Positions 2,995-18,558 of a DNA stretch of 18,695 bases are shown here, one piece after another. This stretch comes from an archaeon (lineage in GTDB: Archaea > Iainarchaeota > Iainarchaeia > Iainarchaeales > Iainarchaeaceae). The number at the start of each line of letters is the position of its first letter. Position 1 is the stretch's first letter. A program made the translations under genes and the position numbers. The DNA lies in the NCBI GenBank assembly GCA_038046625.1, contig JBBSVV010000018.1, forward strand, positions 1 through 18,695, in the 5' to 3' direction. Below the pieces are notes generated by a model. The model had not been told where the DNA came from and searched no databases. It was given only the letters and a program-made list of their open reading frames with translations.

Positions 2995-3777
2995 ATGGAT
3001 TTGAACAAGATAGTTCCGGTAATGGGATTGTTCCTCGTAATGCTTCTTGTAGGCCTCGCATTCACTGGCTACGCACAGACAAACACTGCTGAAAAACAGG
3101 GCGTGGCCTCGTTTGCGGAAGACACAAAGGAAGAGCCGAGACTTATTTCCGTGAGCGGAACCGCAAAGAAAACAATGGCTCCAGATACAGCGGAAATTTA
3201 TCTGAGCGTGGAAACTCTCGATAAGTCCGCATCGAAGAGCCAGAACCAGAACGCCGTTATTTCAGAGAAAGTCAGGGCCGCACTGAAGGCAGCTGGAATA
3301 GCGGACAAGGACATACAAACCACTTCATACAACCTTTATCAGGAGTACGAGTGGAACCAAAGCACCTTGAAGTCGGAAGTGAAAGGGTACAAAACAGTGA
3401 ACTCAATCAAGGTAATTGTGAGGAACCTTTCCAATGTAGGAACCACGATAGATGTCGCGGTAGGCGTGGGAGCCAACAGCGTGAGCGGAGTTTCATTCAC
3501 GCTCTCTGATGAGAAGCAGGCCCAGCTCGCGAACGAGGCGCTGCAGCAGGCCGCCGCAAACGCCTCTTTGAAGGCGCAGAACATTGCAAAGGGCCTCGGA
3601 ATAGCCCTGGGCAAAGTCCAGACCGCTTTGGAAAGCTCGAGCTACTACCCGCCGACGCCATACTACAGGTCATATGACCTGGCTGCGGGAGCAACTGCCG
3701 AATCAGCAAAGACGAGCATAACGCCCGGAGACATTGAAGTGAATGCCTCTGTGAGCGTGACATACGAAATAATCTGA
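2995..3777 (+). CDS. SIMPL domain protein (DUF541/YggE/BP26 family), secreted or membrane-anchored
   Basis: N-terminal signal/TM segment; family-type motifs ISVSGTAKKTMAPDTAEIYLSVET, GYKTVNSIKVIVRNL and GANSVSGVSFTLSD; C-terminal PGDIEVNASVSVTYEI. Confidence 0.92.
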   Translation: MDLNKIVPVMGLFLVMLLVGLAFTGYAQTNTAEKQGVASFAEDTKEEPRLISVSGTAKKTMAPDTAEIYLSVETLDKSASKSQNQNAVISEKVRAALKAAGIADKDIQTTSYNLYQEYEWNQSTLKSEVKGYKTVNSIKVIVRNLSNVGTTIDVAVGVGANSVSGVSFTLSDEKQAQLANEALQQAAANASLKAQNIAKGLGIALGKVQTALESSSYYPPTPYYRSYDLAAGATAESAKTSITPGDIEVNASVSVTYEII

Positions 3778-3987: not shown

Positions 3988-4064
3988 TGGTGGACCGACC
4001 GGGACTTGCACCCGGCGCCTCCCCGTTGCGAACGGGGCGCTCTGGCTGTCTGAGCTATCGGCCC
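3988..4064 (-). tRNA. tRNA-Ala, anticodon CGC, CCA encoded
   Basis: Minus strand folds as GGGCCGA TA GCTC AGACAGCCA GAGC G CCCCG TTCGCAA CGGGG AGGCG CCGGG TGCAAGT CCCGG TCGGTCC A CCA. It has the G3:U70 alanine identity pair and A73. A TATA-like CTTATATA lies ~39 nt upstream (4103-4110). Confidence 0.95.
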
Positions 4065-4127: not shown

Positions 4128-4427
4128 CTAAATTAGTTCTTTATTCCTATTTTTCTTTTTTCCGCCGGCTGCCCGCGCTATCAATCTTCGACCGGTTTTT
4201 GTTGAAATTGTAGCGGCTGTTACTCCAGCACCAATTGCAAGGCCCTTGTTCTGGGTAGCATGATAGGTTGCGGCTCCTGCTGCTGCGCCAATGGCTATAG
4301 TCCTAACTGGTTTACTTGTTGCAACACGCCAGCCAAGCCTTGCTGTTGTGCGAACTGTTGCACCTGCCGCTCTTCTAAAAAGGCTTTTTTTTGGTACGGG
4401 TTTAGCTGGAGGTTTGTGTGCTGGCAT
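4128..4427 (-). CDS. Small, highly basic hypothetical protein with a glycine-zipper-like segment (99 aa)
   Basis: ATG at 4427 (MPAHKPPAKPVPKKSLFRR...), preceded ~22 nt upstream by TTTTTATAT (leaderless archaeal promoter geometry). Contains IAIGAAAGAA and LAIGAGVTAA segments. Confidence 0.7.
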   Translation of the reverse strand: MPAHKPPAKPVPKKSLFRRAAGATVRTTARLGWRVATSKPVRTIAIGAAAGAATYHATQNKGLAIGAGVTAATISTKTGRRLIARAAGGKKKNRNKELI

Positions 4428-4832
4428 TATAGGTTCAAGCACTTTGAGATATAAAAACACGATCTTTTCATTCACTCATTAACGGGAACGCCTAAATAAT
4501 TGATTATTTTTTAACGCCTCCGATTGGCTTGAGGATTGGTTAATCTGCAGGAAAAATCGAATCCTGCAGTATAAGATGCCCAATGTGAAAAAAAAGCTAT
4601 TTTAACCTGTTTGGGCTCGAAAAAGCAACCAGAAACCACAGATTGGCTGAAACGGAAAGCATTAACCAGCTTGAGTCAAATTAAAACAGCTGGAAACCCC
4701 AGAAATCCAAAAAGAACGCCATTTGACAGCTTGTTTCGGGGGAAATGTTTTTAAACATGGGGCGCATATTAATAGTAATTGTTTTATGCCTTGAAACCAA
4801 TGGGCAAGAGCAGGAGAAGGTGAAAAACGAAA

Positions 4833-5282
4833 ATGAACAGTTCCGGTGAAACCATAAGGCTGGATGGCACACACTTGATGCTGGATTGCTTCGGGTGCAA
4901 CAAAAAGGCCTTGGCCAGCGAAGAAGCCATTACGGGGTTCCTGAACGAACTTCCGGACAAGCTGGGGATGAAGAAACTCATAAAACCCTACATTGTAACG
5001 TATCCCGGTGGAGACAGCTGGGATAAGGGGGGCTTGACTGCAATAATGCTTATAGCGGAAAGCCACATAAGCCTGCATACGTTCCCGCACGACGGGTTTT
5101 TCACTGCGGATGTTTATTCCTGCAAACCTTTCGATGTGGAGGAAGCACTGAACATTTTCAGGAGATATTTCAGGGCAAAGACCGAGAAGATACAGATTGC
5201 CAAGCGCGACATAGAGTTCCTCAGGAACAGGAACATGGCGGTTCTCCTGAACAAGCATAAAGTAAAGCAAAAAGGTCAATAA
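4833..5282 (+). CDS. speD: Pyruvoyl-dependent decarboxylase proenzyme of the AdoMetDC/SpeD family; context suggests arginine decarboxylase
   Basis: GTHLMLDCFGC, autocleavage motif IAE|SHISLHTFP and DVYSC. GGAGAAGGTGA ribosome-binding site upstream. Confidence 0.88.
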   Translation: MNSSGETIRLDGTHLMLDCFGCNKKALASEEAITGFLNELPDKLGMKKLIKPYIVTYPGGDSWDKGGLTAIMLIAESHISLHTFPHDGFFTADVYSCKPFDVEEALNIFRRYFRAKTEKIQIAKRDIEFLRNRNMAVLLNKHKVKQKGQ

Positions 5283-5317
5283 ATAAATTTACAGAAAAGC
5301 ATTTGGGGGCGTGAATA

Positions 5318-6520
5318 ATGGGCAAGGTACTGATTATAGGCGCAGGCGGCGTGGGCAATGTCGCGGTAAAGAAGTGCGCGCAGATCCCCGAAGTTTTCGA
5401 CGAAATAATGGTTGCCAGCAGGAGCATCGAGAAGTGCGAGAAAATAAAAAAGGAAACAAAAACCAAAATTCCGATGCGAACCGCAAAGGTTGACGCGGAC
5501 AACGTGAAGGAAACGGCTTCGCTGATTTCAAAGTTCGAGCCGGAAGTCGTGATTAATCTCGCTTTGCCTTATCAGGACCTGACCATAATGGATGCGTGCC
5601 TCGAGACAGGAACGCACTACATTGACACCGCGAATTATGAGCCTCCCGAAGAGGCTAAATTCAGCTATAGTTGGCAGTGGCCTTATGATTCCAAATTCAA
5701 GGGCACGGGAAAAATGGCTTTGCTCGGCTGCGGTTTTGACCCAGGGGTTTCGAACATTTTTTGCGCGTATGCGCAAAAGCATTTGTTCGATGAGATAAAA
5801 AATATTGATATTGTTGACTGCAACGCGGGTTCGCACGGACATCCCTTTGCAACGAATTTTAACCCTGAAATAAACATCCGCGAAATAACGCAGCGCGGAA
5901 AATACTGGGAAAAAGGGCAGTGGAAGGAAATTGAGCCCATGTCAATCAGCTTCGACTTTGATTACCCTGTAGCGGGTCCCAAGAAGAGTTACTTGCTTTT
6001 CCACGAGGAGCTCGAATCATTGGTGAAGAACATCAAGGGGCTTGAACGCATAAGGTTCTGGATGACTTTTTCGCAGAATTACATTACCCACCTCAACGTG
6101 ATTCAGAATCTCGGCCTGAGCAGGATTGATGAGGTTGAGTTTGAGGGCAAAAAAATCGTGCCGCTGAAATTTTTGAAGGCGCTTTTGCCGGACCCATCAA
6201 GCCTGGGCGCAACCTATACAGGAAAAACCGTAATCGGGTGCGTGTTTGACGGCACGAAAAATGGCAAGAGAATTCGGAAATTCATTTACAATGTGTGCGA
6301 CCACGCAGAGGTTTACAAGGAAGTGCAGTCGCAGGCAGTTTCTTACACCGCGGGGGTTCCCCCCGTAATTGGAGCAATGATGATTATGAAGGGCCTCTGG
6401 AAAGGGAAAGGAGTTTTCAATGTCGAACAATTGAACCCGGATCCGTTCATGGAGGAGCTCAACAGGAGGGGCTTGCCTTGGCAAACAGTGGACTTCAAGG
6501 GAAAACTTCTGGAAGGGTAG
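5318..6520 (+). CDS. Carboxy(nor)spermidine dehydrogenase (saccharopine dehydrogenase family)
   Basis: Rossmann motif GAGGVG; family motifs NLALPYQDLTIMDAC, YIDTANYEP, GCGFDPG, FATNFNPEINIREIT and SQAVSYTAGVP. Directly upstream of nspC. Confidence 0.93.
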   Translation: MGKVLIIGAGGVGNVAVKKCAQIPEVFDEIMVASRSIEKCEKIKKETKTKIPMRTAKVDADNVKETASLISKFEPEVVINLALPYQDLTIMDACLETGTHYIDTANYEPPEEAKFSYSWQWPYDSKFKGTGKMALLGCGFDPGVSNIFCAYAQKHLFDEIKNIDIVDCNAGSHGHPFATNFNPEINIREITQRGKYWEKGQWKEIEPMSISFDFDYPVAGPKKSYLLFHEELESLVKNIKGLERIRFWMTFSQNYITHLNVIQNLGLSRIDEVEFEGKKIVPLKFLKALLPDPSSLGATYTGKTVIGCVFDGTKNGKRIRKFIYNVCDHAEVYKEVQSQAVSYTAGVPPVIGAMMIMKGLWKGKGVFNVEQLNPDPFMEELNRRGLPWQTVDFKGKLLEG

Positions 6521-6567
6521 AAACCCCATTCTATGTCATAAATGACACGGGCTTTCCGAAGGCCGAT

Positions 6568-7680
6568 TTGAGCCAAATTGAAACGCCGTTTTACGTAGTT
6601 GACGAGGCACTTCTCGAGAAAAATCTCCGCGTACTTAGCTACGTGAAGAAGAAAACCGGCTGCAAAATCCTTCTCGCTCTGAAGGGCTTTGCAATGCACA
6701 GCACGTTCCCGCTAATAAGAAAATATCTGGACGGGATTTGCGCAAGTTCTCCCCACGAAGCTAAATTAGGCAGGGAAAAATTCGGCAAAGAGGTTCATGC
6801 TTTTGCGCCGGCTTACAGCGAAAATGATATTCGCGGGTTGCTGAAGACCTGCGACCACATTGTGTTCAATTCCTTTGCACAGTGGAAAAAATTCCGCAAA
6901 AAGTTAAAAGGCAAAGTTGAGGCCAGCATAAGGATTAACCCCGAGTATGCGGAAGTGGAAACGGAGCTTTACAATCCATGCGCGCCGAATTCCAGGATGG
7001 GCGTAACATTGAAAAATTTTGATGAAACTGAATTGCAAGGAATCAGCGGGCTGCATTTCCACGCGCTATGCGAACAGAATTCGGACACGCTTGAAAGGGT
7101 TCTGGAGGCGGCCGAGAAAAATTTTGGCAAATATTTTTCAAAAATGAAGTGGATTAATTTTGGCGGAGGCCATCATATCACGCGGAAGGATTATGATGTC
7201 GAGAAGCTCTGCAAGCTGATAATTGATTTCAAGAAAAAATACGGGGTACAGGTAATTCTCGAGCCTGGGGAAGCGGTTGCTTTGAACGCTGGCTTTTTGG
7301 TTTCAAGTGTGCTTGACGCGATAAACAACGGAATGGATATAGCAATCATGGATACGAGCGCGGAAACGCATATGCCGGACACTCTTGCAATGCCTTACCG
7401 ACCATACATAATCGGTTCCGGGAATCCGGGAGAAAAGAAATACACCTACCGGCTCGGCGGCCTGACCTGCCTTTCCGGGGATGTCATTGGCGATTATTCT
7501 TTCGATAAAAAGCTTGAAGTGGGAACAAGGCTCGCGTTCACTGACATGGCAATTTATTCCATGGTGAAGAACACCACCTTCAACGGCGTGCAATTGCCTT
7601 CGATTGTGCTCGTGAAGAACGGCAAGGCAAAAGTGGTAAAAAGGTTCGGCTACGAAGATTACAAGAACAGGCTCTCGTGA
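6568..7680 (+). CDS. nspC: Carboxy(nor)spermidine decarboxylase (PLP, fold III); start uncertain
   Basis: ETPFYVVDE, PLP-lysine motif LLALKGF, LHFHALCEQ, WINFGGGHHIT, LEPGEA, TCLSGDVIGDY and final YEDYKNRLS. No in-frame ATG near the N-terminus; TTG at 6568 chosen, but the frame is open well upstream. Confidence 0.88.
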   Translation: MSQIETPFYVVDEALLEKNLRVLSYVKKKTGCKILLALKGFAMHSTFPLIRKYLDGICASSPHEAKLGREKFGKEVHAFAPAYSENDIRGLLKTCDHIVFNSFAQWKKFRKKLKGKVEASIRINPEYAEVETELYNPCAPNSRMGVTLKNFDETELQGISGLHFHALCEQNSDTLERVLEAAEKNFGKYFSKMKWINFGGGHHITRKDYDVEKLCKLIIDFKKKYGVQVILEPGEAVALNAGFLVSSVLDAINNGMDIAIMDTSAETHMPDTLAMPYRPYIIGSGNPGEKKYTYRLGGLTCLSGDVIGDYSFDKKLEVGTRLAFTDMAIYSMVKNTTFNGVQLPSIVLVKNGKAKVVKRFGYEDYKNRLS

Positions 7681-7699
7681 ATCCGCTTAACGCAGATTT

Positions 7700-8758
7700 T
7701 TAGACGCTGGGCTGCTGCTGGGAAATGCAGTGTATGGTTCCGTATCCGAAAACAAGGTCGAGGCAGTCAATTCCGATTACTTTCCGCGAAGGAAAATGGT
7801 GCGCAATTATTTCAAGCGCCTTTTTGTCTGTTTCAACTCCGAACTGCGGCACCAGGACTGCATTATTTGCTATGTAAAAGTTGCAGTAGCTCGCGGAAAG
7901 CTTTCTCTGGCCGGCAAAAACTTTTGGGGACGGCAGCTTGACAACATCGAATTTTTTTCCGGCAGAATCCGTTGAGGCCGAGAGGATTGAAAGGTTTTTC
8001 AGGAGATTGCGGTAATTGGAATCTTTTTCATTCCCCTCAATAGAGCAGAGTACGGTGTTTTCGCCCACAAATCTGGCGAGATTATCTATGTGGCCGTCGG
8101 TATCGTCGCCTTCAATTCCACCCGGAAGCCATATTATTTTGGAAACGCCTAGATGCGATTTTAATATTTGCTCAATCTTTTCCTTAGGAATGCCGGGGTT
8201 TCTGTTTGGATTAAGGAGGCACTGCTCGGTTGTGAGCAGCACTCCTTTGCCGTTTGTTTCTATTGCGCCGCCCTCCATCACTATTCCTGAAACAAAGAAC
8301 GGCAACTTCATTTGCTCATTGATTGCCTTGGGCATTTTATCGTCTTTCAGCAGCTCGGGGTATTTGTTGCCCCATGCATTGAATTTCCATTTCACCATTG
8401 CAAGCTTTTTTTCCCCGTGATTCACGACAAATGTTGGCCCGTAATCGCGGAACCACACATCGCCGTAATTATGCACAAAAAATTTGATTCTGGAAACGTC
8501 TGCTCCATTGCTTTCAAGGATTTTTATGGCGCGCTTCTTCATTCTCGCGCCGGTAACAAAGAGCTTCACTTCCTCGCTTTTGGTTTCCTGGAGCGCCTTT
8601 ATTATTTGCGAGTAGGTTTGCTCTACCTTTTCGAGGCTCGGAAAGGAAATTATATCGTATGGCCAGGAAAGGAAAATCGCGTCGTGCTTCTCCCATTCCG
8701 CGGGAAAAAAATAGGCGAGTTCACTTGGAGCCGGAGCGCTTTTTTTTGATTGCACCAT
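7700..8758 (-). CDS. aguA: Agmatine deiminase (PPAD family)
   Basis: PAEWE, WFRDYGP, FNAWG, EGGAIETNG, DDTDGHID and catalytic Cys in GTIHCISQQQP. ATG at 8758 preceded by GGAGG. Confidence 0.93.
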   Translation of the reverse strand: MVQSKKSAPAPSELAYFFPAEWEKHDAIFLSWPYDIISFPSLEKVEQTYSQIIKALQETKSEEVKLFVTGARMKKRAIKILESNGADVSRIKFFVHNYGDVWFRDYGPTFVVNHGEKKLAMVKWKFNAWGNKYPELLKDDKMPKAINEQMKLPFFVSGIVMEGGAIETNGKGVLLTTEQCLLNPNRNPGIPKEKIEQILKSHLGVSKIIWLPGGIEGDDTDGHIDNLARFVGENTVLCSIEGNEKDSNYRNLLKNLSILSASTDSAGKKFDVVKLPSPKVFAGQRKLSASYCNFYIANNAVLVPQFGVETDKKALEIIAHHFPSRKVIGIDCLDLVFGYGTIHCISQQQPSV

Positions 8759-9584
8759 AATTTTCAGGCCTCCTTTTTGCAAAAAATCCCCAGCCACGCC
8801 TTATTCGCGTGTTGTCGGAAAAGTCCACGGAAGCAACAAGGATTTCTTCCTTTTGGGAAGCGCGCTTCAGGATTTTTCCGAAGGAATCCGAAATGAAAGA
8901 GCCGCCCCAGAATTTGAGTTTGCCTTCCTTGCCGGCGCGGTTCACCGCAGCAACGTGTATTCCGTTTGCAATTGCATGGCCCCTTTGGATTGTTTCCCAT
9001 GCGGAGTGCCAGTCATCAGGCTCTTTGCCCCCGACAGGCGTTGCTATTGCAGTAGGGTAAAATATTATGTCTGCTCCATTGAGTGCGCTGATTCTTGCGG
9101 CTTCGGGAAACCACTGGTCGAAGCATATGAGCGGCGCGATTTTGCCGAATTTTGTTTTGAAAACCTTAAAGCCGAGGTTGCCTTCCGCGAAATAATTGGC
9201 TTCCCAGAACAAAGGGTCGTGGGGAATGTGCATTTTCCTGTATTTTCCGAGCAGCTTTCCTTTTTCACTGATGACTGCAATGGCGTTGTAGAATTTTTTG
9301 CCCGCCTTTTCGAACAAAGGCACGATTATTACTATGCCGAGCTCTTTTGCGAGCGCGCCCATGTTCTTGGTTGTTTTTCCGGGAACTTTTTCGGCAAGCA
9401 AAAATGCGGATTTATCCTTGTTTTTTTGCGGAAAGTAAAGTGTGCTGAATAGCTCAGGCAGGCACACTATCTGTGCGCCCCTTGAGGCGGCTTTTCTGGC
9501 CGAAGAAACGGCCTTTTCAATGTTCGCGTTTTTGTCGCTGGACATCGGCATCTGAACCAAGCCGATAACGGTTTTTTTTGCCAT
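8721..9584 (-). CDS. aguB: N-carbamoylputrescine amidase (carbon-nitrogen hydrolase family)
   Basis: Nitrilase triad motifs CLPELF, YRKMHIP and ICFDQWFPEAAR, plus YPTAI and QRGHAIANG. Overlaps aguA. Start set at MAKKTVIGLVQ (9584). Confidence 0.88.
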   Translation of the reverse strand: MAKKTVIGLVQMPMSSDKNANIEKAVSSARKAASRGAQIVCLPELFSTLYFPQKNKDKSAFLLAEKVPGKTTKNMGALAKELGIVIIVPLFEKAGKKFYNAIAVISEKGKLLGKYRKMHIPHDPLFWEANYFAEGNLGFKVFKTKFGKIAPLICFDQWFPEAARISALNGADIIFYPTAIATPVGGKEPDDWHSAWETIQRGHAIANGIHVAAVNRAGKEGKLKFWGGSFISDSFGKILKRASQKEEILVASVDFSDNTRIRRGWGFFAKRRPENYGAIKKKRSGSK

Positions 9585-9774
9585 GCAAAGAAGAGTGGGG
9601 GGCAAATTTTTTAACATGATGGAGCAAAAGACACGCAAAAAAATTGGAAAAAGCTGAAAAAACGAAACCCGAAAAAAACGGTCAAACGGTGTTTTTCGGA
9701 AAAAAAGAATAGCTGGGTGACCGATTGACGGTAGTATTTTATTCCCTGACATTGTTAATTGATTAAGTGGTTTT

Positions 9775-10026
9775 ATGGGTGCAAATGGTAAAGTTCCTCC
9801 GGGGAGAAGTCCGAAACTTTTCATTAAACCAGCAGTAATTGCCGACAGAGAAGCAAAAAAGCCGAAAGGCACTTTGAGGCGGACATCCGAACAATTTCAG
9901 GCCGAAAGAATCAAATCAAGGATAGAGCAGAAAGCACGAGTCCGGGCAAGAGTTTCGGCCGCTAATGTAGTGCAACGAGCGATTGCCGATCTTAAAGGTT
10001 CAAGAGGGCGCAGACGTTTGCTCTGA
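9775..10026 (+). CDS. Small Arg/Lys-rich hypothetical protein (83 aa)
   Basis: ATG-started ORF filling the gap between aguB and the zinc-ribbon gene, with an AT-rich TATA-like stretch upstream. No recognisable domain. Confidence 0.55.
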   Translation: MGANGKVPPGRSPKLFIKPAVIADREAKKPKGTLRRTSEQFQAERIKSRIEQKARVRARVSAANVVQRAIADLKGSRGRRRLL

Positions 10027-10172: not shown

Positions 10173-10337
10173 ATGGGTTATAGGGATTTCGGCAATCAGG
10201 GACCTAGGCAGATGTATACTGCAACATGCTCTGACTGCGGAAAGGAAACTGAAGTTCCGTTTAAGCCTGCCGAAGGAAGGCCGGTTTACTGCAGGGACTG
10301 CTACCAGAAGCACAAGCCAAAAAGAGACAGCTATTAA
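10173..10337 (+). CDS. CxxC-x17-CxxC zinc-ribbon protein (54 aa)
   Basis: PRQMYTATCSDCGKETEVPFKPAEGRPVYCRDCY: two CxxC motifs separated by 17 residues. Strong Shine-Dalgarno before the ATG at 10173. Confidence 0.93.
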   Translation: MGYRDFGNQGPRQMYTATCSDCGKETEVPFKPAEGRPVYCRDCYQKHKPKRDSY

Positions 10338-10503: not shown

Positions 10504-11838
10504 ATGCTCGTGATGAAATTCGGGGGAAGTTCGGTTGCCACTTCCGAACGCATAATCAATGCGTGCAAAATCATCAAGTCAAGCATTGGCAAAAATCCTG
10601 TAGTTGTTTTTTCCGCACTCGGGACAAGCACGGACAACCTGCTCGAGGCCGGAAACAAAGCCCTGAAAGGCGAAATCCATGTTGAGGAGATCAGGAATTT
10701 TCACCTCAAGGTTTGCCAGGAGCTCGGGGTCGACAAAACAAAAATCGAGGGCCTGCTTGGGGAACTGGATGATTTGATTACGGGGTTGTCACTAATTAGG
10801 GATTTGGCCCCAAAAACAAAGGATTTGCTGGTTTCGTTCGGGGAAAGGCTTTCCGTGCGCATAATAAGCGAGTACCTGAATGCCATAGGCATCAGGGCAA
10901 AATTTTTTGACGCATGGGATATAGGTTTTGTGAGCGACTCCAATTTTGTGAACGCGAGGCTGTTGCCGGAAACCTATGAGAGGGTTGCGAAAGCGCTTGC
11001 GCCGCTCAAAAGGAATTACTCTTACACCCCCGTAATAACGGGCTTCCTCGCGAAGGATGAGGACGGAAACATAACGACAACAGGAAGGGGCGGAAGCGAC
11101 TTAACCGCTTCAGTGATAGGCGCCGCAATAAAGGCGGACAAGATTGAAATCTGGAAGGACGTTGACGGGCTTTTCACAACCGACCCCGGGATAGTCCCCA
11201 ATGCGCTGCACGTGCCAAAGGTTTCTTTCGAGGAGGCTTCGGAACTCGCTTATTTCGGCGCCAAGGTGTTCCATCCGCGCTCAATTCTTCCCGCAATGAG
11301 CGCTAACATACCTGTTGTCGTCAGGAATTCTTTCAAGCCCTCTGGAGAAGGGACGATTGTGCTCAAGGAATTCAAAAAGAAAAATAGTGGCCTTACAGGA
11401 ATCAGCTTCAAAAAGAATATTATAGTGATAGACATAATTTCAACGAGAATGGTCGGGCAATCCGGCTTTTTGGCGCGCGTATTCAACGAGTTCCGGGAAC
11501 TCGGCATTTCCGTGGATTTAATTGCGACGAGCGAAGTAAGCATTTCGCTGACCATTGACGATGACAGGAACCTTAGGGAACTGCACAGGCGCCTGGAGGA
11601 AATCGCGAACGTGAACATAAGGTCGGAAAAGGCTAGCATAAGCCTTGTAGGGGATGTCAACAACGGCGGGAATGTCATGGGCCGGCTTTTGGTGGCGCTT
11701 GCCCGCAACGGAATAGCCCCAGAACTGGTTTCTTACGGGGCCTCGAAAGTGAGCGCCAGCATTGTTGTGGATAATTCAAAGGCCGAGGAGTGCGTGAAGA
11801 TACTTCATAAGGAGTTTTTTTCGGAGGCGGGAAAATGA
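10504..11838 (+). CDS. lysC: Aspartate kinase with C-terminal ACT domains
   Basis: MKFGGSSV, SFGERLS, GRGGSDLTA, WKDVDG..TTDP, EASELAYFGAKVFHP and ACT motif DLIATSEVSIS. Confidence 0.96.
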   Translation: MLVMKFGGSSVATSERIINACKIIKSSIGKNPVVVFSALGTSTDNLLEAGNKALKGEIHVEEIRNFHLKVCQELGVDKTKIEGLLGELDDLITGLSLIRDLAPKTKDLLVSFGERLSVRIISEYLNAIGIRAKFFDAWDIGFVSDSNFVNARLLPETYERVAKALAPLKRNYSYTPVITGFLAKDEDGNITTTGRGGSDLTASVIGAAIKADKIEIWKDVDGLFTTDPGIVPNALHVPKVSFEEASELAYFGAKVFHPRSILPAMSANIPVVVRNSFKPSGEGTIVLKEFKKKNSGLTGISFKKNIIVIDIISTRMVGQSGFLARVFNEFRELGISVDLIATSEVSISLTIDDDRNLRELHRRLEEIANVNIRSEKASISLVGDVNNGGNVMGRLLVALARNGIAPELVSYGASKVSASIVVDNSKAEECVKILHKEFFSEAGK

Positions 11839-12599
11839 ACATGGCATTGATTGGCTACGGAAAAATGGGGCAGATGGTGCAAAGGGTTGCGGAAGAAAGG
11901 AAGCACAGGATAGTATCGATAATTGATGTCTCGAACAAAAAAGCGATGTTCAGGGAAATAAACAAAGGCTCGGTAAAGGATGCCGACGTGTGCATCGATT
12001 TTACCGCCCCTGAATCCGCCATAGAGAACATCAAAAAAGTTTCTTCGCTTGGAAAAAACATCGTGGTTGGAACAACCGGCTGGTATAGCCATATTCAGGA
12101 AGCCGGGGAGATAGTGAAAAAAAGTGGCGTTGGCTGCATTTACGCCTCAAACTTTTCCATAGGCATGAACATAATGTTCGGCCTCACTGAATACGCCTCC
12201 AGGATATTCGACAGGTTTGACGCCTATGATGCCGCCGGCTTCGAGATGCACCACAACAAAAAGGCGGACAGCCCATCCGGAACGGCAAAGAGTCTGGCGG
12301 AAATAATGAAGGCCAATATTTCGCGCAAAAAGAGGATTGTTTATGATATGGTGAACCGCAGGATAGAGCCTGACGAGCTTCATTTCGCGAGCCTGAGGAT
12401 CGGCTCGGTTCCGGGAACGCACAAAATAATTTTCGATTCAATCGCGGACACAATAGAATTGAGCCACACGGCACGCAGCCGCGAAGGGTTCGCATTGGGC
12501 GCGGTGCTTGCAGCCGAATGGTTAAGGGGGAAAAAAGGGTTCTACACCATAAATGATTTCATGAAGGAAATAATGCATCCTGATTCGGGAAAACACTGA
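11835..12599 (+). CDS. dapB: 4-hydroxy-tetrahydrodipicolinate reductase
   Basis: GYGKMG, IDFT, VVGTTG, NFSIG, EMHHNKKADSPSGTA and SREGFALGA. ATGA overlap with lysC. Confidence 0.96.
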   Translation: MNMALIGYGKMGQMVQRVAEERKHRIVSIIDVSNKKAMFREINKGSVKDADVCIDFTAPESAIENIKKVSSLGKNIVVGTTGWYSHIQEAGEIVKKSGVGCIYASNFSIGMNIMFGLTEYASRIFDRFDAYDAAGFEMHHNKKADSPSGTAKSLAEIMKANISRKKRIVYDMVNRRIEPDELHFASLRIGSVPGTHKIIFDSIADTIELSHTARSREGFALGAVLAAEWLRGKKGFYTINDFMKEIMHPDSGKH

Positions 12600-12609
12600 A
12601 GGGCTTTTT

Positions 12610-13911
12610 TTGGCAAAAACAATCAGCATAGGTTTAATCGGCTGCGGAACCGTGGGCTCGGGAGTGCTCGAACTGCTGAAGGAGAACGGCGCGGAAATCG
12701 AGAAAAAAACCGGCATAAAAATCAGCGTGAAAAAAGTTGTTGTGCGCGACAGGCACAAGAAGAGGAATGCCGACGTTGATAAAGGGCTGCTCACCGAGAA
12801 CGTTGATGAAGTGCTGGAAGACAATGAAATTGACATGGTTGTAGAGCTCATAGGGGGCTACGAGCCGGCAAAAACGATTACGCTCAGGGCATTGAAAAAC
12901 GGGAAGTATGTAGTGAGCGCGAACAAGGCGCTTTACGCGAGGTTTGGCTCGGAGCTTTTCGAGGAAGCCAGGAAATGCAATTCAGACATTTACATCGAGG
13001 CCGCGGTTGCGGGTGCCATACCAATTGTCCTGCCGATGAGCCTTTCCCTGTGCGCCAACAGGATAACTTCCATACACGCGATTCTGAACGGAACCTGCAA
13101 CTTCATACTCACGAAAATGATGGAAGAGGGCCTGAGCTATGAAACTGCGCTGAAGCAGGCGCAGGAAAAGGGTTTTGCGGAAGCTGATCCTGCGCTGGAC
13201 GTGAACGGCACGGACACGATGCACAAGCTTGTTATCCTTGCTTCGATAGCTTTCGGCACCGCCCTGAAGGAAAGCGACGTTTTTGTCGAGGGCATAACGG
13301 GAATCTCGAAGGAGGATATGGCTTATGCCGAAGAGCTCGGTTATGTGATCAGGCTTTTGGGGATTGCGAAGCTCGAGAAGGGAAAGCTGGAGTTGCGTGT
13401 CCATCCCACAATGGTGCCAAAGCTTGAGCCGCTCGCCTCCGTGAGGAACGAGTTCAATGCGGTCATGGTGAACGGGAATTTTTCCGACAGGCTCCTCTTT
13501 CAGGGGCGGGGCGCGGGAAGCAGGCCCACGGCTTCCGCGGTTGTCGCGGACATAATCAATGTTGCACAGGACAAGTTTTCCGGCGCGAAATATGACACCG
13601 AGCTCATAAAAATTGGTTCCTCGAGAACGGTTGAAATGAGGGACATCAAAGATGCAGAGTGTTATTACTATCTGATGGCGCATCTTGAGGGCAAAGCAGG
13701 GGTTCTCACGCGGGTCAGCGAGGTTTTCGGAAAGCACGGCGTCAGCATCCAGGTTGTCATCCAGAAAGAGCAGCCCGAGGCAAAGCGTTTCGTTCCCGTT
13801 GTTCTTCTTACGCACAAAACAAGGGAAGGGCTAATCCGGAAGGTTGTGAAGGAAGTGGATGCCCTGAGCATTACGGACGGAAAAACCAAACTCATAAGAA
13901 TAGAGAAATGA
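12610..13911 (+). CDS. hom: Homoserine dehydrogenase with C-terminal ACT domain
   Basis: GCGTVG, VVSANKA, EAAVAGAIP, LNGTCNFIL, GFAEADP..DV.G.D..HKL and GRGAG..PTASAV. TTG start. Confidence 0.95.
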   Translation: MAKTISIGLIGCGTVGSGVLELLKENGAEIEKKTGIKISVKKVVVRDRHKKRNADVDKGLLTENVDEVLEDNEIDMVVELIGGYEPAKTITLRALKNGKYVVSANKALYARFGSELFEEARKCNSDIYIEAAVAGAIPIVLPMSLSLCANRITSIHAILNGTCNFILTKMMEEGLSYETALKQAQEKGFAEADPALDVNGTDTMHKLVILASIAFGTALKESDVFVEGITGISKEDMAYAEELGYVIRLLGIAKLEKGKLELRVHPTMVPKLEPLASVRNEFNAVMVNGNFSDRLLFQGRGAGSRPTASAVVADIINVAQDKFSGAKYDTELIKIGSSRTVEMRDIKDAECYYYLMAHLEGKAGVLTRVSEVFGKHGVSIQVVIQKEQPEAKRFVPVVLLTHKTREGLIRKVVKEVDALSITDGKTKLIRIEK

Positions 13912-13974
13912 CGCCAGAAACGAAAAAAAGGTGTTTAAAGGTTTAGTGGTCTAAGGTTAAGTGGTGAATAGCCA

Positions 13975-14859
13975 ATGGACATAAGGGGAGTTTATACCGC
14001 AATGGTGACGCCATTCAGGGGCAAAGAGGTTGATTATGATGGCCTGAGGCAGAACATTGCTTTCCAGATTGAGAACGGCATTTCAGGGATACTTGTTCTT
14101 GGGACAACGGGCGAAAACCCGACGCTTTCCCGCAAGGAACAGGACACAATAATCAAGGTTGCGGCCGAGGAAACAAAAGGCAAGGCAATTTTGATGGTCG
14201 GCACGGGAACCAACTCAACGGAAAAAACAATCGAGAACACGGGAACCGCAAAAGAGCTTGGTGCCGACATTGCATTGATAGTCACCCCATACTACAACAA
14301 GCCCACCAATGAGGGACTTTACAGGCACTTCAAGGCTGTAAGCGAAGCGGTTGACATTCCGGTTGTTGTTTACAACATACAGGGCAGGACCGGAAAAAAC
14401 ATCGACACCGCAACAATGAAGAGGATTGCACAGCTGAAAAATATTGCAGGCGTAAAGGAAGCATCCGGAAACATTGACCAGATTGGTGAAGTGCTGGGCG
14501 AAATAGCGTCGAAAAACCCTGAATTCAGCGTGATGAGCGGCGATGATTCAATGACATTTCCTTTGATGGCTTTGGGCGGAAAAGGCATTATTTCGGTCGT
14601 GAGCAACCTGGTTCCGAAAAAGGTAGTTGAAATGGCCAATGCCGCGGAGCGCGGCGACTTTAATGAAGCGAGGAAACTGCATTTCGAACTGCTGCCCATA
14701 TTCAAGGGCGCGTTCATTGAAACAAACCCCATTCCGATAAAGGAGGCAATGGATATGGCAGGAATGCCTTCCGGCCCATGCAGGCTGCCTCTTTGTGAAA
14801 TGGAGCCGCAGAACCGCGAGAAGCTAAAAAAGATACTCGAACAGATGAAAATAATATAA
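13975..14859 (+). CDS. dapA: 4-hydroxy-tetrahydrodipicolinate synthase
   Basis: TAMVTPF, GTTGE, PYYNKP, YNIQGRTG, Schiff-base lysine in GVKEASG, SGDD and ETNPIPIK. Confidence 0.96.
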   Translation: MDIRGVYTAMVTPFRGKEVDYDGLRQNIAFQIENGISGILVLGTTGENPTLSRKEQDTIIKVAAEETKGKAILMVGTGTNSTEKTIENTGTAKELGADIALIVTPYYNKPTNEGLYRHFKAVSEAVDIPVVVYNIQGRTGKNIDTATMKRIAQLKNIAGVKEASGNIDQIGEVLGEIASKNPEFSVMSGDDSMTFPLMALGGKGIISVVSNLVPKKVVEMANAAERGDFNEARKLHFELLPIFKGAFIETNPIPIKEAMDMAGMPSGPCRLPLCEMEPQNREKLKKILEQMKII

Positions 14860-14866
14860 GCACATT

Positions 14867-15964
14867 ATGCACAATTTTTTTGGAAGTGTAAAATTGGACA
14901 AAAAGAAAGTTGGAATTCTCGGCGCAACCGGAATGGTCGGGCAGCAGTACGTGAGCCTCTTGGAAAACCACCCGTGGTTCGAGGTGGGCTGCGTTGCGGC
15001 TTCCGAAAGGTCGGCAGGCAAAAAGTATTCCGAGGCAGTTGAGGGAAGATGGCACATGCAGAAGGAAATTCCGCAAACCGCAAAGGAATTAATGGTTCGG
15101 GATGTCGCACAGGTAAAAGAAATCGCAAAGGAGTGCGACTTTGTTTTTTCGGCGCTTGACACTCCTGTTGCAAAAGTTTTCGAGGAAAAATATGCGGAGG
15201 CAGGAACGCCAGTTGTTTCGAACGCGTCAACGCACAGGAACACAAAAGACGTTCCAATGCTCATTCCTGAAATAAACGCGGAGCACATGAGCATTATTCC
15301 GATGCAGCAAAAAAACCGCGGCTGGGCAAATGGGTTCATTGTCGTGAAGCCGAATTGTTCCTTGCAGAGCTACATGACGCCATTGTTCGCGCTGCACGGA
15401 AAATTCAGTGTGAAAAAAGTAATCGTGACTACGCTACAGGCCGTAAGCGGCGCGGGGCACCCCGGAGTTTCCTCATTCGACATTATTGACAATGTGATTC
15501 CTTACATTGGCGGGGAAGAGGAGAAAAGCGAGAACGAGCCGATGAAAATACTTGGAAGCGTAAAGGGCAACGAGATAGTGAACGCTTCAGGGATAGAGAT
15601 TTCCGCGCACTGCAACCGCGTTCCCGTAATTGACGGGCACCTCGCGTGCGTCTCCGCTGCTTTTGAGAAAAAGCCTTCGCGCGCGGAAATTCTGGATGCG
15701 TGGAAAAAATTCAGGGGCATTCCGCAGGAACTTAAACTTCCTTTCGCGCCAAAGCAGCCTATCATTTATCGCGAGGAGGAGAACAGACCCCAGCCGCGCC
15801 TTGACCGCGATGTTGACAAGGGAATGGCCGTAACTGTCGGAAGGCTGAGGAAATGCAATGTTCTGGATTGGCGCTTTGTGGGGCTATCGCACAACACAAT
15901 AAGAGGGGCTGCCGGCGGCGGAATCCTGAACGCGGAGCTCCTCGCGGCGAAAAAGTTTATTTGA
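14867..15964 (+). CDS. asd: Aspartate-semialdehyde dehydrogenase (archaeal/fungal-like type); alternative TTG start at 14894
   Basis: LGATGMVGQ, catalytic [30 protein letters not shown] and HNTIRGAAG. Confidence 0.95.
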
Positions 15965-15997
15965 TTTTCAGGTTTTGTTATTTGCAGGCGTGATTCA

Positions 15998-17224
15998 GTG
16001 GTTAAAACGAACCCTAACTATGACAAATTGGTTTCCGGTTATCTTTTTCCTGAAATAAACAGGCGCGTGAACACGTTCCGCGAAAAAAATCGGGGCGTTG
16101 AAGTGATGCACCTCGGCATCGGCGACACAACGCACGCATTGGCACCAAGCATTGTAAAGGCGATGCACAATGCAGTTGAGAAGCTCGCTGACGAAAAAAC
16201 CTATACTGGTTACGGGGATGAACAGGGAAACAAAGAACTGAGGAAAGCAATTGCAGAGTATTACAAAAATCGCGGGGTTGAATTGGCGACCGATGAGGTG
16301 TTTGTGAGCGACGGAGCGAAATGCGATTTAGCGAACATGCAATCCATTTTTTCGCAGGAAGCCATTATTGCAGTGCAGGATCCTGTTTACCCTGTGTACG
16401 TTGACACGAACGTGATTGCGGGAAGGACAGGGGCACTCAACCCGAAAGGCGGGTTCGATGGAATCGTTTACATGCCCTGCACCGAGGATAACAATTTTTT
16501 CCCCGAGGTGCCGAGGCAAAAAGTCGATTTAGTTTATTTGTGCTCGCCCAACAACCCAACTGGCGCAACCGCGACTAAACAGCAGCTTGGGAAGTTCGTT
16601 GATTACGCGAGGAAAAACAAGGCCATAATATTGTTTGATGCCGCTTACAACGAGTACATTTCGGATTCCTCGCTGCCCAAGAGCATTTACCAGATTAAAG
16701 GCGCGATGGAATGCTGCATTGAAATAAACAGTTTTTCCAAGAGCGCGGGCTTCACGGGAGTCAGGCTGGGCTGGACAATAGTGCCGAAGAGCGTTTCGTG
16801 CGAAAATGCGGCACCCGGAAAGCTCAATGCGCTCTGGAACAGGAGGCAAACCACTATGTTCAATGGGGCCTCGAACATCGCGCAGGAAGGCGGCATCGCG
16901 TCTTTATCGGAAAAGGGAATAAAGGAGAACAGGAAAATAATAGATTATTACATGGAGAATGCGCGCATCATAAAAAAGTGCTTCGAAGGCAAGGGCATGA
17001 AGGTTTTCGGCGGCGAAAATGCGCCTTATCTTTGGGTAAAGCTTCCGCGCGGAATAAAATCATGGGATTTTTTTGACAAGCTTCTAGCCGAGGCGCATGT
17101 GGTCTGCACACCGGGCTCAGGATTCGGCTCGAAAGGAGAGGGTTTTGTGAGGCTGAGCGCGTTCGGGAAGCGCAAGGAAACAGAGAGAGCAATTGAAAGC
17201 ATAAAGAAGAATTTGAAACTTTGA
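15998..17224 (+). CDS. dapL: LL-diaminopimelate aminotransferase
   Basis: [38 protein letters not shown]-lysine motif [14 protein letters not shown] and FNGASNI. GTG start. Confidence 0.95.
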
Positions 17225-17268
17225 ATAAGTTCAGCAAGCAATAAGCAAAAGGAAAAAAACGTGATGCC

Positions 17269-18558
17269 ATGAACTCGGACTCTGATTTGCCATTCACCAA
17301 GCAACAGATTGAAAAAATAGCGGAAAAGTATCCCACGCCGTTCCATATTTATTACGAGGAAGGAATCAGGAAGAATGCAAAAGCATTGAACAGGGCTTTT
17401 TCGCGCTTTCCGGGCTTCAAAAATTTTTTTGCGGTGAAAGCCTGCCCGAACCCATACATAATGGAAATAGTGAAGGAAGAAGGCATGGGGGTTGACTGCA
17501 GTTCGCTGCCAGAGCTTTTGCTCGCGCAAGCTGTAGGCTTCAAGGGAGAGGAAATAATGTTCACCTCAAACAACACTCCCGCAAACGAGTTCAAAAAGGC
17601 TTTCGAGCTCGGCGCGATAATAAACCTCGACGACATCACGCACATCACTTTCCTGGAGAAGCATGCCAGAATTCCTGAACTCATTTGTTTCAGGTATAAT
17701 CCGGGGCCGCTGCGAACAACTGCAGAAGGGAATGTTATTGGCAACCCGCAGGACGCAAAGTATGGCCTCACAAAGGAACAGCTCTTCGGGGCATACAGAA
17801 TAATGCAGGGAAAGGGAGTGAAGCGCTTCGGTTTGCACACAATGATTGCTTCCAACGAACTCAGGAAAGATGTGTTCGCGGAAACAGCAGCCATGCTCTT
17901 TGACATCGCAATCGAGCTGAACAAAAAGCTCGGCATAAAGCTCGAGTTTGTGAATCTCGGCGGCGGAATAGGAATTCCCTACAAGCCGGAACAGAAGCCT
18001 GTTGATTTGGAGGCGCTTTCGAAAATGATTGCGGAGGAATATGCCAAAAAAAACATTTCGAAAATGCTCCCGAAAATGAAAATCGTAATGGAGAACGGGA
18101 GAATGGTTACCGGCCCATACGGATATCTTATCACAAGGGCGATTCACGAAAAGCACATCTATAAAGAATACATCGGTGTTGACGCTTCAATGGCGAACCT
18201 CATGAGGCCGGGAATGTACGGCGCGTACCACCACATAACAGTGCTGGGAAAGGAGAGCCGAGAGGCGACGGAAACCTACAGTATAGTGGGTTCGCTTTGC
18301 GAGAACAACGACATGTTCGCTGTGCAAAGGAAATTCCCGAAAATAGAAGTGGGAGACTTGCTCGCGATACACGATTCGGGGGCTCATGGGCACGCAATGG
18401 GTTTCAACTACAATGGCAAGCTGCGCTCAGCGGAGCTGCTGCTGAAAAAGTCCGGAGAAGTTCAGCTTATACGCAGGGTCGAAACCCCGGCGGATTACTT
18501 CAAAACACTGGACTTCAAGGATTCGAAGTACGCTGATTTGGGAAAAAACAAAAAATAG
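17269..18558 (+). CDS. lysA: Diaminopimelate decarboxylase
   Basis: YPTPFHIY, PLP-lysine motif FAVKACPNP, NLGGGIG, MENGR, LMRPGMYGAYH, GSLCENND and GAHGHAMGFNYNG. Last gene of the dap operon. Confidence 0.93.
   Translation: MNSDSDLPFTKQQIEKIAEKYPTPFHIYYEEGIRKNAKALNRAFSRFPGFKNFFAVKACPNPYIMEIVKEEGMGVDCSSLPELLLAQAVGFKGEEIMFTSNNTPANEFKKAFELGAIINLDDITHITFLEKHARIPELICFRYNPGPLRTTAEGNVIGNPQDAKYGLTKEQLFGAYRIMQGKGVKRFGLHTMIASNELRKDVFAETAAMLFDIAIELNKKLGIKLEFVNLGGGIGIPYKPEQKPVDLEALSKMIAEEYAKKNISKMLPKMKIVMENGRMVTGPYGYLITRAIHEKHIYKEYIGVDASMANLMRPGMYGAYHHITVLGKESREATETYSIVGSLCENNDMFAVQRKFPKIEVGDLLAIHDSGAHGHAMGFNYNGKLRSAELLLKKSGEVQLIRRVETPADYFKTLDFKDSKYADLGKNKK

Follow-up and report, generated by a model that had tools for sequence, protein, structure and literature searches.

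A predicted SAM-independent, agmatine-first arginine-to-spermidine gene cluster headed by a SpeD-derived arginine decarboxylase in an Iainarchaeum-lineage DPANN archaeon

Our analysis of 18,695 nucleotides of archaeal DNA (positions 1 to 18,695 of contig JBBSVV010000018.1, assembly GCA_038046625.1; this whole stretch is called the window below) centred on a cluster of five genes, in which a homologue of the S-adenosylmethionine (SAM or AdoMet) decarboxylase SpeD heads an operon with a dehydrogenase of the saccharopine dehydrogenase family and an nspC-type decarboxylase, facing an aguB-aguA pair on the opposite strand. We estimate a probability of about 0.6 that this cluster, which belongs to a DPANN archaeon from the Iainarchaeum lineage, encodes a SAM-independent, agmatine-first pathway leading from arginine to spermidine, beginning with a SpeD-derived arginine decarboxylase (SpeDA) and bypassing putrescine. 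The SpeD homologue, self-cleaved at Glu76-Ser77 to its pyruvoyl form, would decarboxylate L-arginine, and not AdoMet, to agmatine; the dehydrogenase would join agmatine to aspartate beta-semialdehyde with NADPH, producing carboxyaminopropylagmatine, which the nspC-type enzyme, dependent on pyridoxal phosphate (PLP), would convert to N1-aminopropylagmatine. The AguA homologue would then deiminate the guanidino group, leaving a carbamoylated spermidine from which the AguB homologue would strip the carbamoyl group to yield spermidine, and the adjoining genes for aspartate kinase and aspartate-semialdehyde dehydrogenase (asd) would supply the semialdehyde. We infer all of these activities in the host, the order of steps two to five, and the substrates of AguA and AguB from comparisons of sequence and gene context.

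The original prediction for this DNA had likewise described a five-gene, SAM-independent arginine-to-spermidine module, with the SpeD homologue as its missing arginine decarboxylase, and in these respects it is upheld. The five genes lie at the predicted coordinates (Table 1), and Pfam and NCBIfam scans of 16 large open reading frames (ORFs) of the window detected no speE, speA or pdaD, as it had stated. Its order of intermediates, through putrescine and carboxyspermidine, is probably wrong, as judged from the Asn, Glu and Glu (N/E/E) of the dehydrogenase and from the SpeY-linked type of the AguA and AguB homologues.

The SpeD homologue is very probably an arginine decarboxylase. Enzymes of this activity derived from AdoMet decarboxylase (AdoMetDC) were named SpeDA by Li, Liang, Phillips and Michael in JBC (Li et al. 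2023, PMC10407285), and the central idea is therefore not new, because that publication includes a characterised enzyme 72% identical to the window protein. This enzyme, GenBank PIN84875.1 (P0007 among our relatives) from a Ca. Diapherotrites archaeon, agrees with the window protein at 98 of 136 aligned positions without gaps; when purified, it had an arginine Km of 0.095 mM and a kcat/Km of 2200 M-1 s-1 (Li et al. 2023, Table 2), and its activity toward ornithine and lysine was undetectable. Over the approximately 36 positions of the catalytic centre the two proteins differ at three, L68I, L81I and H86E (window residue first), and position 86, which follows Phe-Pro, is occupied by H, Q, E, Y, S, F, D or C among the closest relatives. 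PF02675 covers residues 14-125 of the window protein and PDB entries 2iii and 1tlu are matched, as expected of a Class 1b AdoMetDC fold; the TIGR03330 score is 74.3 bits, just below the cut-off of 75.65. Residues S77, H82 and C97 align with S63, H68 and C83 of the T. maritima AdoMetDC (PDB 1tlu, 2iii), the Ser, His and Cys to which Li et al. 2023 ascribe processing and catalytic roles, and self-cleavage between Glu76 and Ser77 is predicted from this alignment.

The search for relatives, made over 5.8 billion proteins, returned 211 candidates, 183 of them at E <= 0.001. When 1.84 billion cluster representatives were scanned in full with HMMER, 2982 relatives were obtained at E <= 0.001; the subfamily is compact and distinct, as just three representatives reach E <= 1e-30. 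In a quick maximum-likelihood tree (IQ-TREE, LG+G4, 179 rows, 148 columns), the window protein and PIN84875 fall together in a 7-row clade (SH-aLRT 92) nested within a 47-row clade (SH-aLRT 98). The root of this tree is weak because the branch of the outgroup is long (1.86); that outgroup, the AdoMetDC of Sinorhizobium phage phiN3, is the sole genuine AdoMetDC in the tree and the only one used of 92 phage records, all below 60% identity. The comparison with characterised SpeD-derived arginine and ornithine decarboxylases that the original prediction had proposed was thus obtained for the former, through PIN84875; for the latter, no characterised ornithine-specific SpeDC accession was found among the relatives from the SpeD search, a search seeded with a Gln-Glu-Ser-type protein of the Candidate Phyla Radiation, or the cluster look-ups, and the tree contains none.

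Were the SpeD homologue an ornithine decarboxylase of the SpeDC kind, putrescine would pass directly to carboxyspermidine dehydrogenase and decarboxylase (CASDH and CASDC), and AguA and AguB would process imported agmatine. This would be in keeping with the casdh/casdc clusters of Li et al. 2023, which held speDC and not speDA, speDA being mostly clustered with speY, and with the sister group of the 47-row clade, which includes sequences with Gln before Glu-Ser and may be SpeDC-like. We give this reading only a faint chance: PIN84875, whose catalytic centre is nearly identical, showed no detectable ornithine activity, the adjoining aguB-aguA pair implies the production of agmatine, and close relatives adjoin SpeB or AguB-AguA. 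Four central-region residues, Gln, Thr, Phe and Tyr, are reported as diagnostic of SpeDC (Li et al. 2023, Fig. 8). Before Glu-Ser the window protein has Ala75 and not Gln, Gln being found there in 10 of 120 aligned hits, and it shares Thr83, Phe84 and Tyr95 with the arginine decarboxylase PIN84875.

Ten two-domain SpeD homologues of 243-271 residues (P0156-P0277 range) recall the degraded SpeD-SpeDC fusions of Li et al. 2023. A Glu-Ser/Thr-His cleavage-site match occurs once in seven of them and not at all in one, and the other two have two motif matches with one plausible cleavage site. As stand-ins for SpeD-SpeDC fusions they were rejected, given their divergent centres and the lack of a second plausible cleavage site.

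A genuine AdoMetDC feeding an unassembled or unrecognised aminopropyltransferase was also weighed, and its chance appears exceedingly faint. The Pfam match and the near-threshold NCBIfam match to AdoMetDC would favour it, as would the incompleteness of the assembly (G000; 84.6% complete, 986 kb in 57 contigs, of which the window is contig 18) and an HTFP motif with its Pro at the place of the HTWP Pro in T. maritima. As a marker of AdoMetDC against arginine decarboxylase, this Pro is uninformative for a single sequence, since PIN84875, an arginine decarboxylase and the characterised orthologue, shares the HTFP of the window protein. The cluster moreover already has a complete aminopropyl-donating system that needs no decarboxylated AdoMet. 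In the whole assembly, the window gene is the single match to PF02675, and there is no match to PF01564 (SpeE, Spermine_synth), PF01862 (PdaD, PvlArgDC) or PF00491 (agmatinase/arginase); TIGR01273 (SpeA; 37 bits) and PF02784 (Orn_Arg_deC_N) are matched by lysA alone, and PF01276 (OKR_DC_1) by one 14-bit hit at most. A genome of the same genus (G001, 87% complete) was likewise negative for SpeE, PdaD, OKR_DC_1, Orn_Arg_deC_N and agmatinase. The search of the rest of the genome for speE, speA and pdaD that the original prediction had suggested therefore returned none of them at these levels of completeness, nor the combination of an aminopropyltransferase with a separate arginine decarboxylase.

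The same pattern extends to an order-level sample of 31 genomes (G000 and 30 relatives), 11 of the 31 being of high quality. PF02675 was matched in nine and Spermine_synth above its cut-off in seven, with both together in none; two of the nine SpeD-holding genomes gave sub-threshold, 22-bit SpeE matches. The search logic of Li et al. 2023, shared by the original prediction, was to look for SpeD homologues without SpeE, without a canonical arginine or ornithine decarboxylase, and beside SpeB or AguA/AguB. In G000 and G001, both incomplete, neither SpeE nor a canonical decarboxylase was found (TIGR01273 having been run on G000 only), and the cluster itself holds agmatine-consuming enzymes, namely the AguA and AguB homologues and the dehydrogenase discussed below.

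The surroundings of the five closest relatives with DNA (L004-L008) point in the same direction, as none has a speE neighbour and three (L005, L006 and L007) have agmatine-pathway neighbours. The nearest, a contig titled Ca. Iainarchaeum andersonii (L004), carries a SpeD homologue 98% identical to that of the window in the same gene order, which confirms the archaeal host proposed originally. In the locus of PIN84875 (L007) and in L005 (71% identity), SpeD is followed by SpeY and by a 630-residue CN_hydrolase-PAD_porph fusion, and L006 (67%) combines SpeD and SpeY with an arginase-family protein (SpeB); L008 (59%) lacks polyamine neighbours. More distant loci from Marinimicrobia (46%) and Micrarchaeota (39%) hold SpeD-SpeB-SpeY and SpeD-SpeY, respectively. 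The nspC model matched only G000 and G001 (2/31 genomes): within the order as searched, the module is confined to this genus, and its relatives use SpeY.

The identity of the polyamine acceptor turns on the dehydrogenase, which according to Li et al. 2025 (PMC11999265) sets the specificity of such pairs, and not the decarboxylase. The same authors reported that species encoding an arginine decarboxylase follow the aminopropylagmatine route and those encoding an ornithine decarboxylase the carboxyspermidine route, and that the 'CASDH/CASDC' pairs of Deferribacter desulfuricans, Hydrogenimonas thermophila and Clostridium leptum convert agmatine to N1-aminopropylagmatine with little carboxyspermidine; with the D. 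desulfuricans pair in E. coli, carboxyspermidine was about 100-fold lower than with the Agrobacterium CASDH. By kinetics, the enzymes of B. fragilis (PDB 8DEB) and C. leptum are carboxyaminopropylagmatine dehydrogenases (CAPADH; Ostlund et al. 2026, PMC13683441). In the B. fragilis enzyme N105, E107 and E229 were proposed for agmatine recognition and H228 as the base; at the recognition positions, Brucella and Agrobacterium putrescine enzymes have I/E/D and the Vibrio diaminopropane enzyme has V/V/D.

Judged against this background, the window dehydrogenase is probably an agmatine-using CAPADH and not a putrescine-using CASDH. Its best PDB scores were to 4INA (557.9 bits), 8DEB (556.6), 4rl6 (529.5) and 8h4z (484), and its score to the carboxynorspermidine synthase model NF043000 was 408 bits, under the 800-bit cut-off. 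In the 8deb_A alignment, N106, E108, H229 and E230 (DTAN106-Y-E108-P; LLFH229-E230-ELE) match N105, E107, H228 and E229 of B. fragilis, so that Asn and Glu stand where a CASDH has Ile and Asp. This N/E/H/E set occurs in all 119 of the nearest homologues (a set from which the aberrant protein P0391 was excluded), with I/E/H/D in two controls of the same alignment, and it was also found in a Catenovulum homologue (56% identical) and in the L004 protein. Plasmid-borne homologues from Pseudochrobactrum (Brucellaceae), Sinorhizobium meliloti and Paracoccus pantotrophus, taken as negative controls from genera or families with tested putrescine enzymes, are each 43% identical to the window dehydrogenase, and all three have I/E/H/D together with a four-residue loop insertion. 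WP_013008001 of D. desulfuricans SSM1 (P0488) is 67.8% identical (271/400), and it would correspond to the tested D. desulfuricans CASDH because its accession directly precedes WP_013008002, that of the arginine decarboxylase named by Li et al. 2025. The accompanying decarboxylase passes the TIGR01047 cut-off (519.7 against 409.05 bits) and matches PDB 9eaf and 3n29 at 480 and 382 bits.

The nearest named homologues of the dehydrogenase, at 73-75% identity, belong to Woesearchaeota and Nanoarchaeota assemblies, and the gene therefore circulates among DPANN archaea. The protein P0391 (551 aa) was considered as a SpeDA-dehydrogenase fusion and rejected, as it has no SpeDA similarity; it is a Bacteroides-like dehydrogenase in which about 150 residues are duplicated internally, probably through misassembly.

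The AguA and AguB homologues point away from agmatine as their own substrate. AguA scored 277.8 bits to TIGR03380 (cut-off 381.8) and 295.3 to NF010070 (483), and AguB 278.8 to TIGR03381 (410.25), all below the NCBIfam equivalog cut-offs; in the PDB, AguA matched 1xkn at 314 bits and the plant agmatine iminohydrolase 3h7c at 223 bits, and AguB matched the N-carbamoylputrescine amidohydrolase 5h8i at 202 bits. Their nearest relatives of known context are SpeY-linked: the fused protein of L007 shares 57% identity (198/349) with AguA in its C-terminal half and 58% (167/287) with AguB in its N-terminal half. SpeY couples two agmatines, and its associated deiminase homologues, where tested in a bacterial case, used the bis-guanidino product as substrate but not agmatine (Li et al. 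2026, PMC13625781). The same paper called deiminases of Bacteroides, Akkermansia and Hydrogenimonas likely N1-aminopropylagmatine enzymes, and for B. fragilis an AguA-like deiminase and a C-N hydrolase were predicted to finish the pathway on aminopropylagmatine (Ostlund et al. 2026). N1-aminopropylagmatine is therefore the predicted substrate of the window AguA homologue, agmatine being its substrate if putrescine is the intermediate.

The two genes that are separate at 7700-9584 of the window appear as one protein of about 630 residues, with the same domain order, in the SpeY-bearing loci L005 (4027-5925) and L007 (2683-4575). Among the 31 genomes PAD_porph was matched in six. The reading frame has about 366 residues in this genus and 353 in one other genome, whereas in three relatives it is apparently fused and reaches 632-667 residues.

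The route of the original prediction, in which AguA and AguB carry agmatine through N-carbamoylputrescine to putrescine and CASDH and CASDC then carry putrescine through carboxyspermidine to spermidine, fits the gene content equally well. The best named matches of the cluster are to agmatine deiminase, N-carbamoylputrescine amidase and carboxynorspermidine enzymes, and CAPADH-type enzymes keep weak putrescine activity (PMC13683441). We nevertheless consider it doubtful, as the dehydrogenase has N/E/E and not the I/E/D of putrescine-type homologues, resembles its D. desulfuricans and B. fragilis counterparts far more than the alphaproteobacterial type, and is accompanied by AguA and AguB proteins below the equivalog thresholds and of SpeY-linked affinity. 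In B. fragilis, moreover, N-carbamoylputrescine did not prove viable as a substrate for CAPADH (PMC13683441). Putrescine is probably not an intermediate because the cluster combines a CAPADH-type dehydrogenase with AguA and AguB homologues nearest to SpeY-linked forms that were inactive on agmatine in the tested bacterial case.

Several points weigh against the agmatine-first reading and the SpeDA assignment on which it builds. The N/E/E rule is a hypothesis from a five-sequence alignment and Boltz-2 docking, and CAPADH enzymes still use putrescine, with a millimolar Km, so that both routes could run (PMC13683441). The N1-aminopropylagmatine iminohydrolase activity is termed 'likely' or 'predicted' in the sources (PMC13625781, PMC13683441), and the correspondence of P0488 to the tested D. 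desulfuricans protein is deduced from accession adjacency. PIN84875 is unnamed among the E. coli speD mutant complementation tests found in the available text of Li et al. 2023, and the loss of AdoMetDC activity in its subclade therefore rests on that paper's general statement. The assembly completeness of 84.6% also leaves room for an unseen speE or arginine decarboxylase, and the negatives in G001 are to be read in the same way.

The genes that follow the cluster would be consistent with a nearby supply of semialdehyde. In the window, aspartate kinase, dapB, hom, dapA, asd, LL-diaminopimelate aminotransferase and lysA extend over positions 10504-18558. In L004 (6054-11190), aspartate kinase holds the same position beside the cluster and is directly followed by asd (89% identical to the window asd) and then by an unrelated HerA-like gene, and neither DHDPS nor Orn_Arg_deC_N was matched in the genome of L004. 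As L004 retains kinase and asd without the lysine genes, it is the semialdehyde-making pair that is the conserved neighbour of the cluster. Lysine biosynthesis appears to vary between close relatives.

The plus-strand speD operon and the minus-strand aguB-aguA pair converge, with stop codons 19 bases apart. A ribosome-binding site, GGAGAAGGTGA, precedes the ATG of speD at 4833, and 35 bases separate speD from the dehydrogenase gene, which starts with ATG at 5318. The decarboxylase may start at TTG 6478 (400 aa, with AGGAGG upstream) or at TTG 6568 (370 aa). On the opposite strand the likely start of aguB is ATG 9584 and that of aguA ATG 8758, with a GGAGG site upstream, so that the start of aguA and the end of aguB share 38 bases in different frames.

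Table 1. Genes and residues of the proposed spermidine cluster and its semialdehyde supply in the window.
Feature	Position	Strand	Basis
speDA, AdoMetDC-fold pyruvoyl-dependent arginine decarboxylase proenzyme (predicted), 149 aa	4833..5282	+	PF02675 AdoMet_dc 92.3 bits
Ser77 codon, predicted pyruvoyl cofactor precursor	5061..5063	+	Alignment to PDB 1tlu, 2iii
CASDH/CAPADH-family aspartate-semialdehyde-dependent dehydrogenase, 400 aa, predicted CAPADH	5318..6520	+	Sacchrp_dh_NADP + Sacchrp_dh_C
PLP-dependent CASDC or carboxyaminopropylagmatine decarboxylase (CAPADC), nspC type	6478..7680 (or 6568..7680)	+	TIGR01047 519.7 bits
AguA homologue, guanidino-group deiminase/iminohydrolase (predicted), 352 aa	7700..8758	-	PF04371 PAD_porph 379 bits
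AguB homologue, N-carbamoyl-polyamine amidohydrolase (predicted), 287 aa	8721..9584	-	PF00795 CN_hydrolase 212.6 bits
Aspartate kinase	10504..11838	+	AA_kinase + ACT domains; TIGR00657 368.8 bits
asd, aspartate-semialdehyde dehydrogenase	14867..15964	+	NF006416 492.9 bits

Upstream of the cluster lie a nucleotidyltransferase with weak similarity to the MntA antitoxin (128-745), a major facilitator superfamily transporter whose similarity to Tet efflux pumps is below threshold (1354-2523; 175 bits against a cut-off of 475), a SIMPL/DUF541 protein (2995-3777), a minus-strand tRNA (3991-4064), and an ORF of 115 residues that matches no family (4128-4475). An Rfam scan of the window returned that tRNA alone, with no riboswitch ahead of the genes of the aspartate family. 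Between aguB and aspartate kinase, a plus-strand gene preceded by GGAGG encodes a 54-residue treble-clef zinc finger (10173-10337; PF23477, 78 bits) and is nearly identical in L004. In the interval from the aguB start to this gene, a segment of about 350 bases (approximately 9596-9940) has no counterpart in L004, is single-copy in the genome, and overlaps a basic 83-residue ORF (9775-10026) with no Pfam match.

Two further roles had been suggested for the products of the pathway. The use of agmatine for tRNA-Ile agmatidine finds no support, as the TiaS domains TiaS_FLD (PF08489) and TiaS_TCKD (PF22641) were each found in none of the 31 genomes of the order and matched in four of four control archaea. 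For the decoding of AUA in an order with no TiaS match, a tRNA-Ile with UAU, a TilS-like enzyme or a divergent TiaS would be candidates; ARAGORN detected 25 tRNAs in G000, with tRNA-Ile not among them. The use of spermidine for hypusination in the host is plausible. Deoxyhypusine synthase (PF01916) was not found in the 84.6% complete G000 assembly, which is probably an assembly gap; it is present in 26 of the 31 genomes, including G001 (C21:7334-8158), where it is unlinked to the cluster, and relatives that pair SpeDA with SpeY have at least two PF01916 copies.

If correct, our reading would run contrary to the impression left by published work, namely that outside speY clusters speDA is poorly integrated. 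SpeDA would be able to join an aspartate-semialdehyde spermidine module that Li et al. 2023 saw with ornithine-specific SpeDC only, and a DPANN archaeon with a genome of about 1 Mb would retain its own spermidine synthesis. Of the five genes, three are also likely to be misnamed by automatic annotation. Public records already label relatives of the SpeD homologue 'adenosylmethionine decarboxylase', as had been foreseen, where arginine decarboxylase would be expected; CAPADH is likely to appear as a saccharopine or carboxyspermidine dehydrogenase, and the aminopropylagmatine-route enzymes would probably pass as agmatine deiminase and N-carbamoylputrescine amidase. The compact five-gene set would further serve to probe the residue rule proposed in 2026 for dehydrogenases acting on agmatine, putrescine or diaminopropane.

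In the literature on polyamines in Iainarchaeum and Diapherotrites, where Li et al. 2023 alone was relevant, we found no description of this cluster, the original genome paper of the phylum being outside this coverage. The novelty is the combination, that is, SpeDA heading an archaeal CAPADH/CAPADC operon, with split AguB and AguA and adjoining aspartate kinase and asd. At even odds, in our judgement, this would be the first archaeal arginine-to-spermidine route without putrescine and SAM, in which one DPANN genus has swapped the ancestral SpeY for a CAPADH/CAPADC pair shared among DPANN archaea and has kept AguB and AguA, pre-adapted to N-substituted agmatines, beside its own aspartate kinase and asd.

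The closest counterpart of the first enzyme is the SpeDA of Ca. Diapherotrites archaeon CG11 (PIN84875), which shares the fold, the Ser/His/Cys centre and the DPANN lineage (Diapherotrites/Iainarchaeia) at 72% identity; both enzymes head a polyamine operon, and speE was found in neither genome. Their partners differ, since the CG11 enzyme is accompanied by SpeY, a deoxyhypusine synthase homologue of homospermidine synthesis, and by a fused AguB-AguA, and that of the window by a CAPADH/CAPADC-type pair with separate aguB and aguA on the opposite strand. For the remainder of the pathway the comparison is with bacteria. Xi et al. in 2023 reportedly described an agmatine-initiated, aspartate-semialdehyde-dependent spermidine pathway in Synechocystis. 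Bacteria with CAPADH and CAPADC share with the window the N/E/E dehydrogenase and the nspC-type decarboxylase, and the finish by a deiminase and a C-N hydrolase is as predicted for B. fragilis (PMC13683441). Synechocystis and C. leptum, in contrast, finish with a ureohydrolase (PMC13683441). In the literature as far as it was available, the CAPADH/CAPADC route is found in bacteria with PLP-dependent arginine decarboxylases, whereas the window would combine it with a small pyruvoyl SpeDA in an archaeal host. The classical CASDH/CASDC pathway of Agrobacterium, Brucella and Paracoccus and the carboxynorspermidine pathway of Vibrio draw on the same two enzyme families and the same semialdehyde chemistry, but the putrescine and diaminopropane enzymes have I/E/D or V/V/D where the window dehydrogenase has N/E/E, and the latter lacks the loop insertion of the alphaproteobacterial type. 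Within the Archaea, the arginine decarboxylase of Sulfolobus solfataricus, the crenarchaeal type, is likewise an AdoMetDC paralogue turned arginine decarboxylase; it is set apart by its description as an independent emergence beside a genuine AdoMetDC and SpeE pathway (Li et al. 2023).

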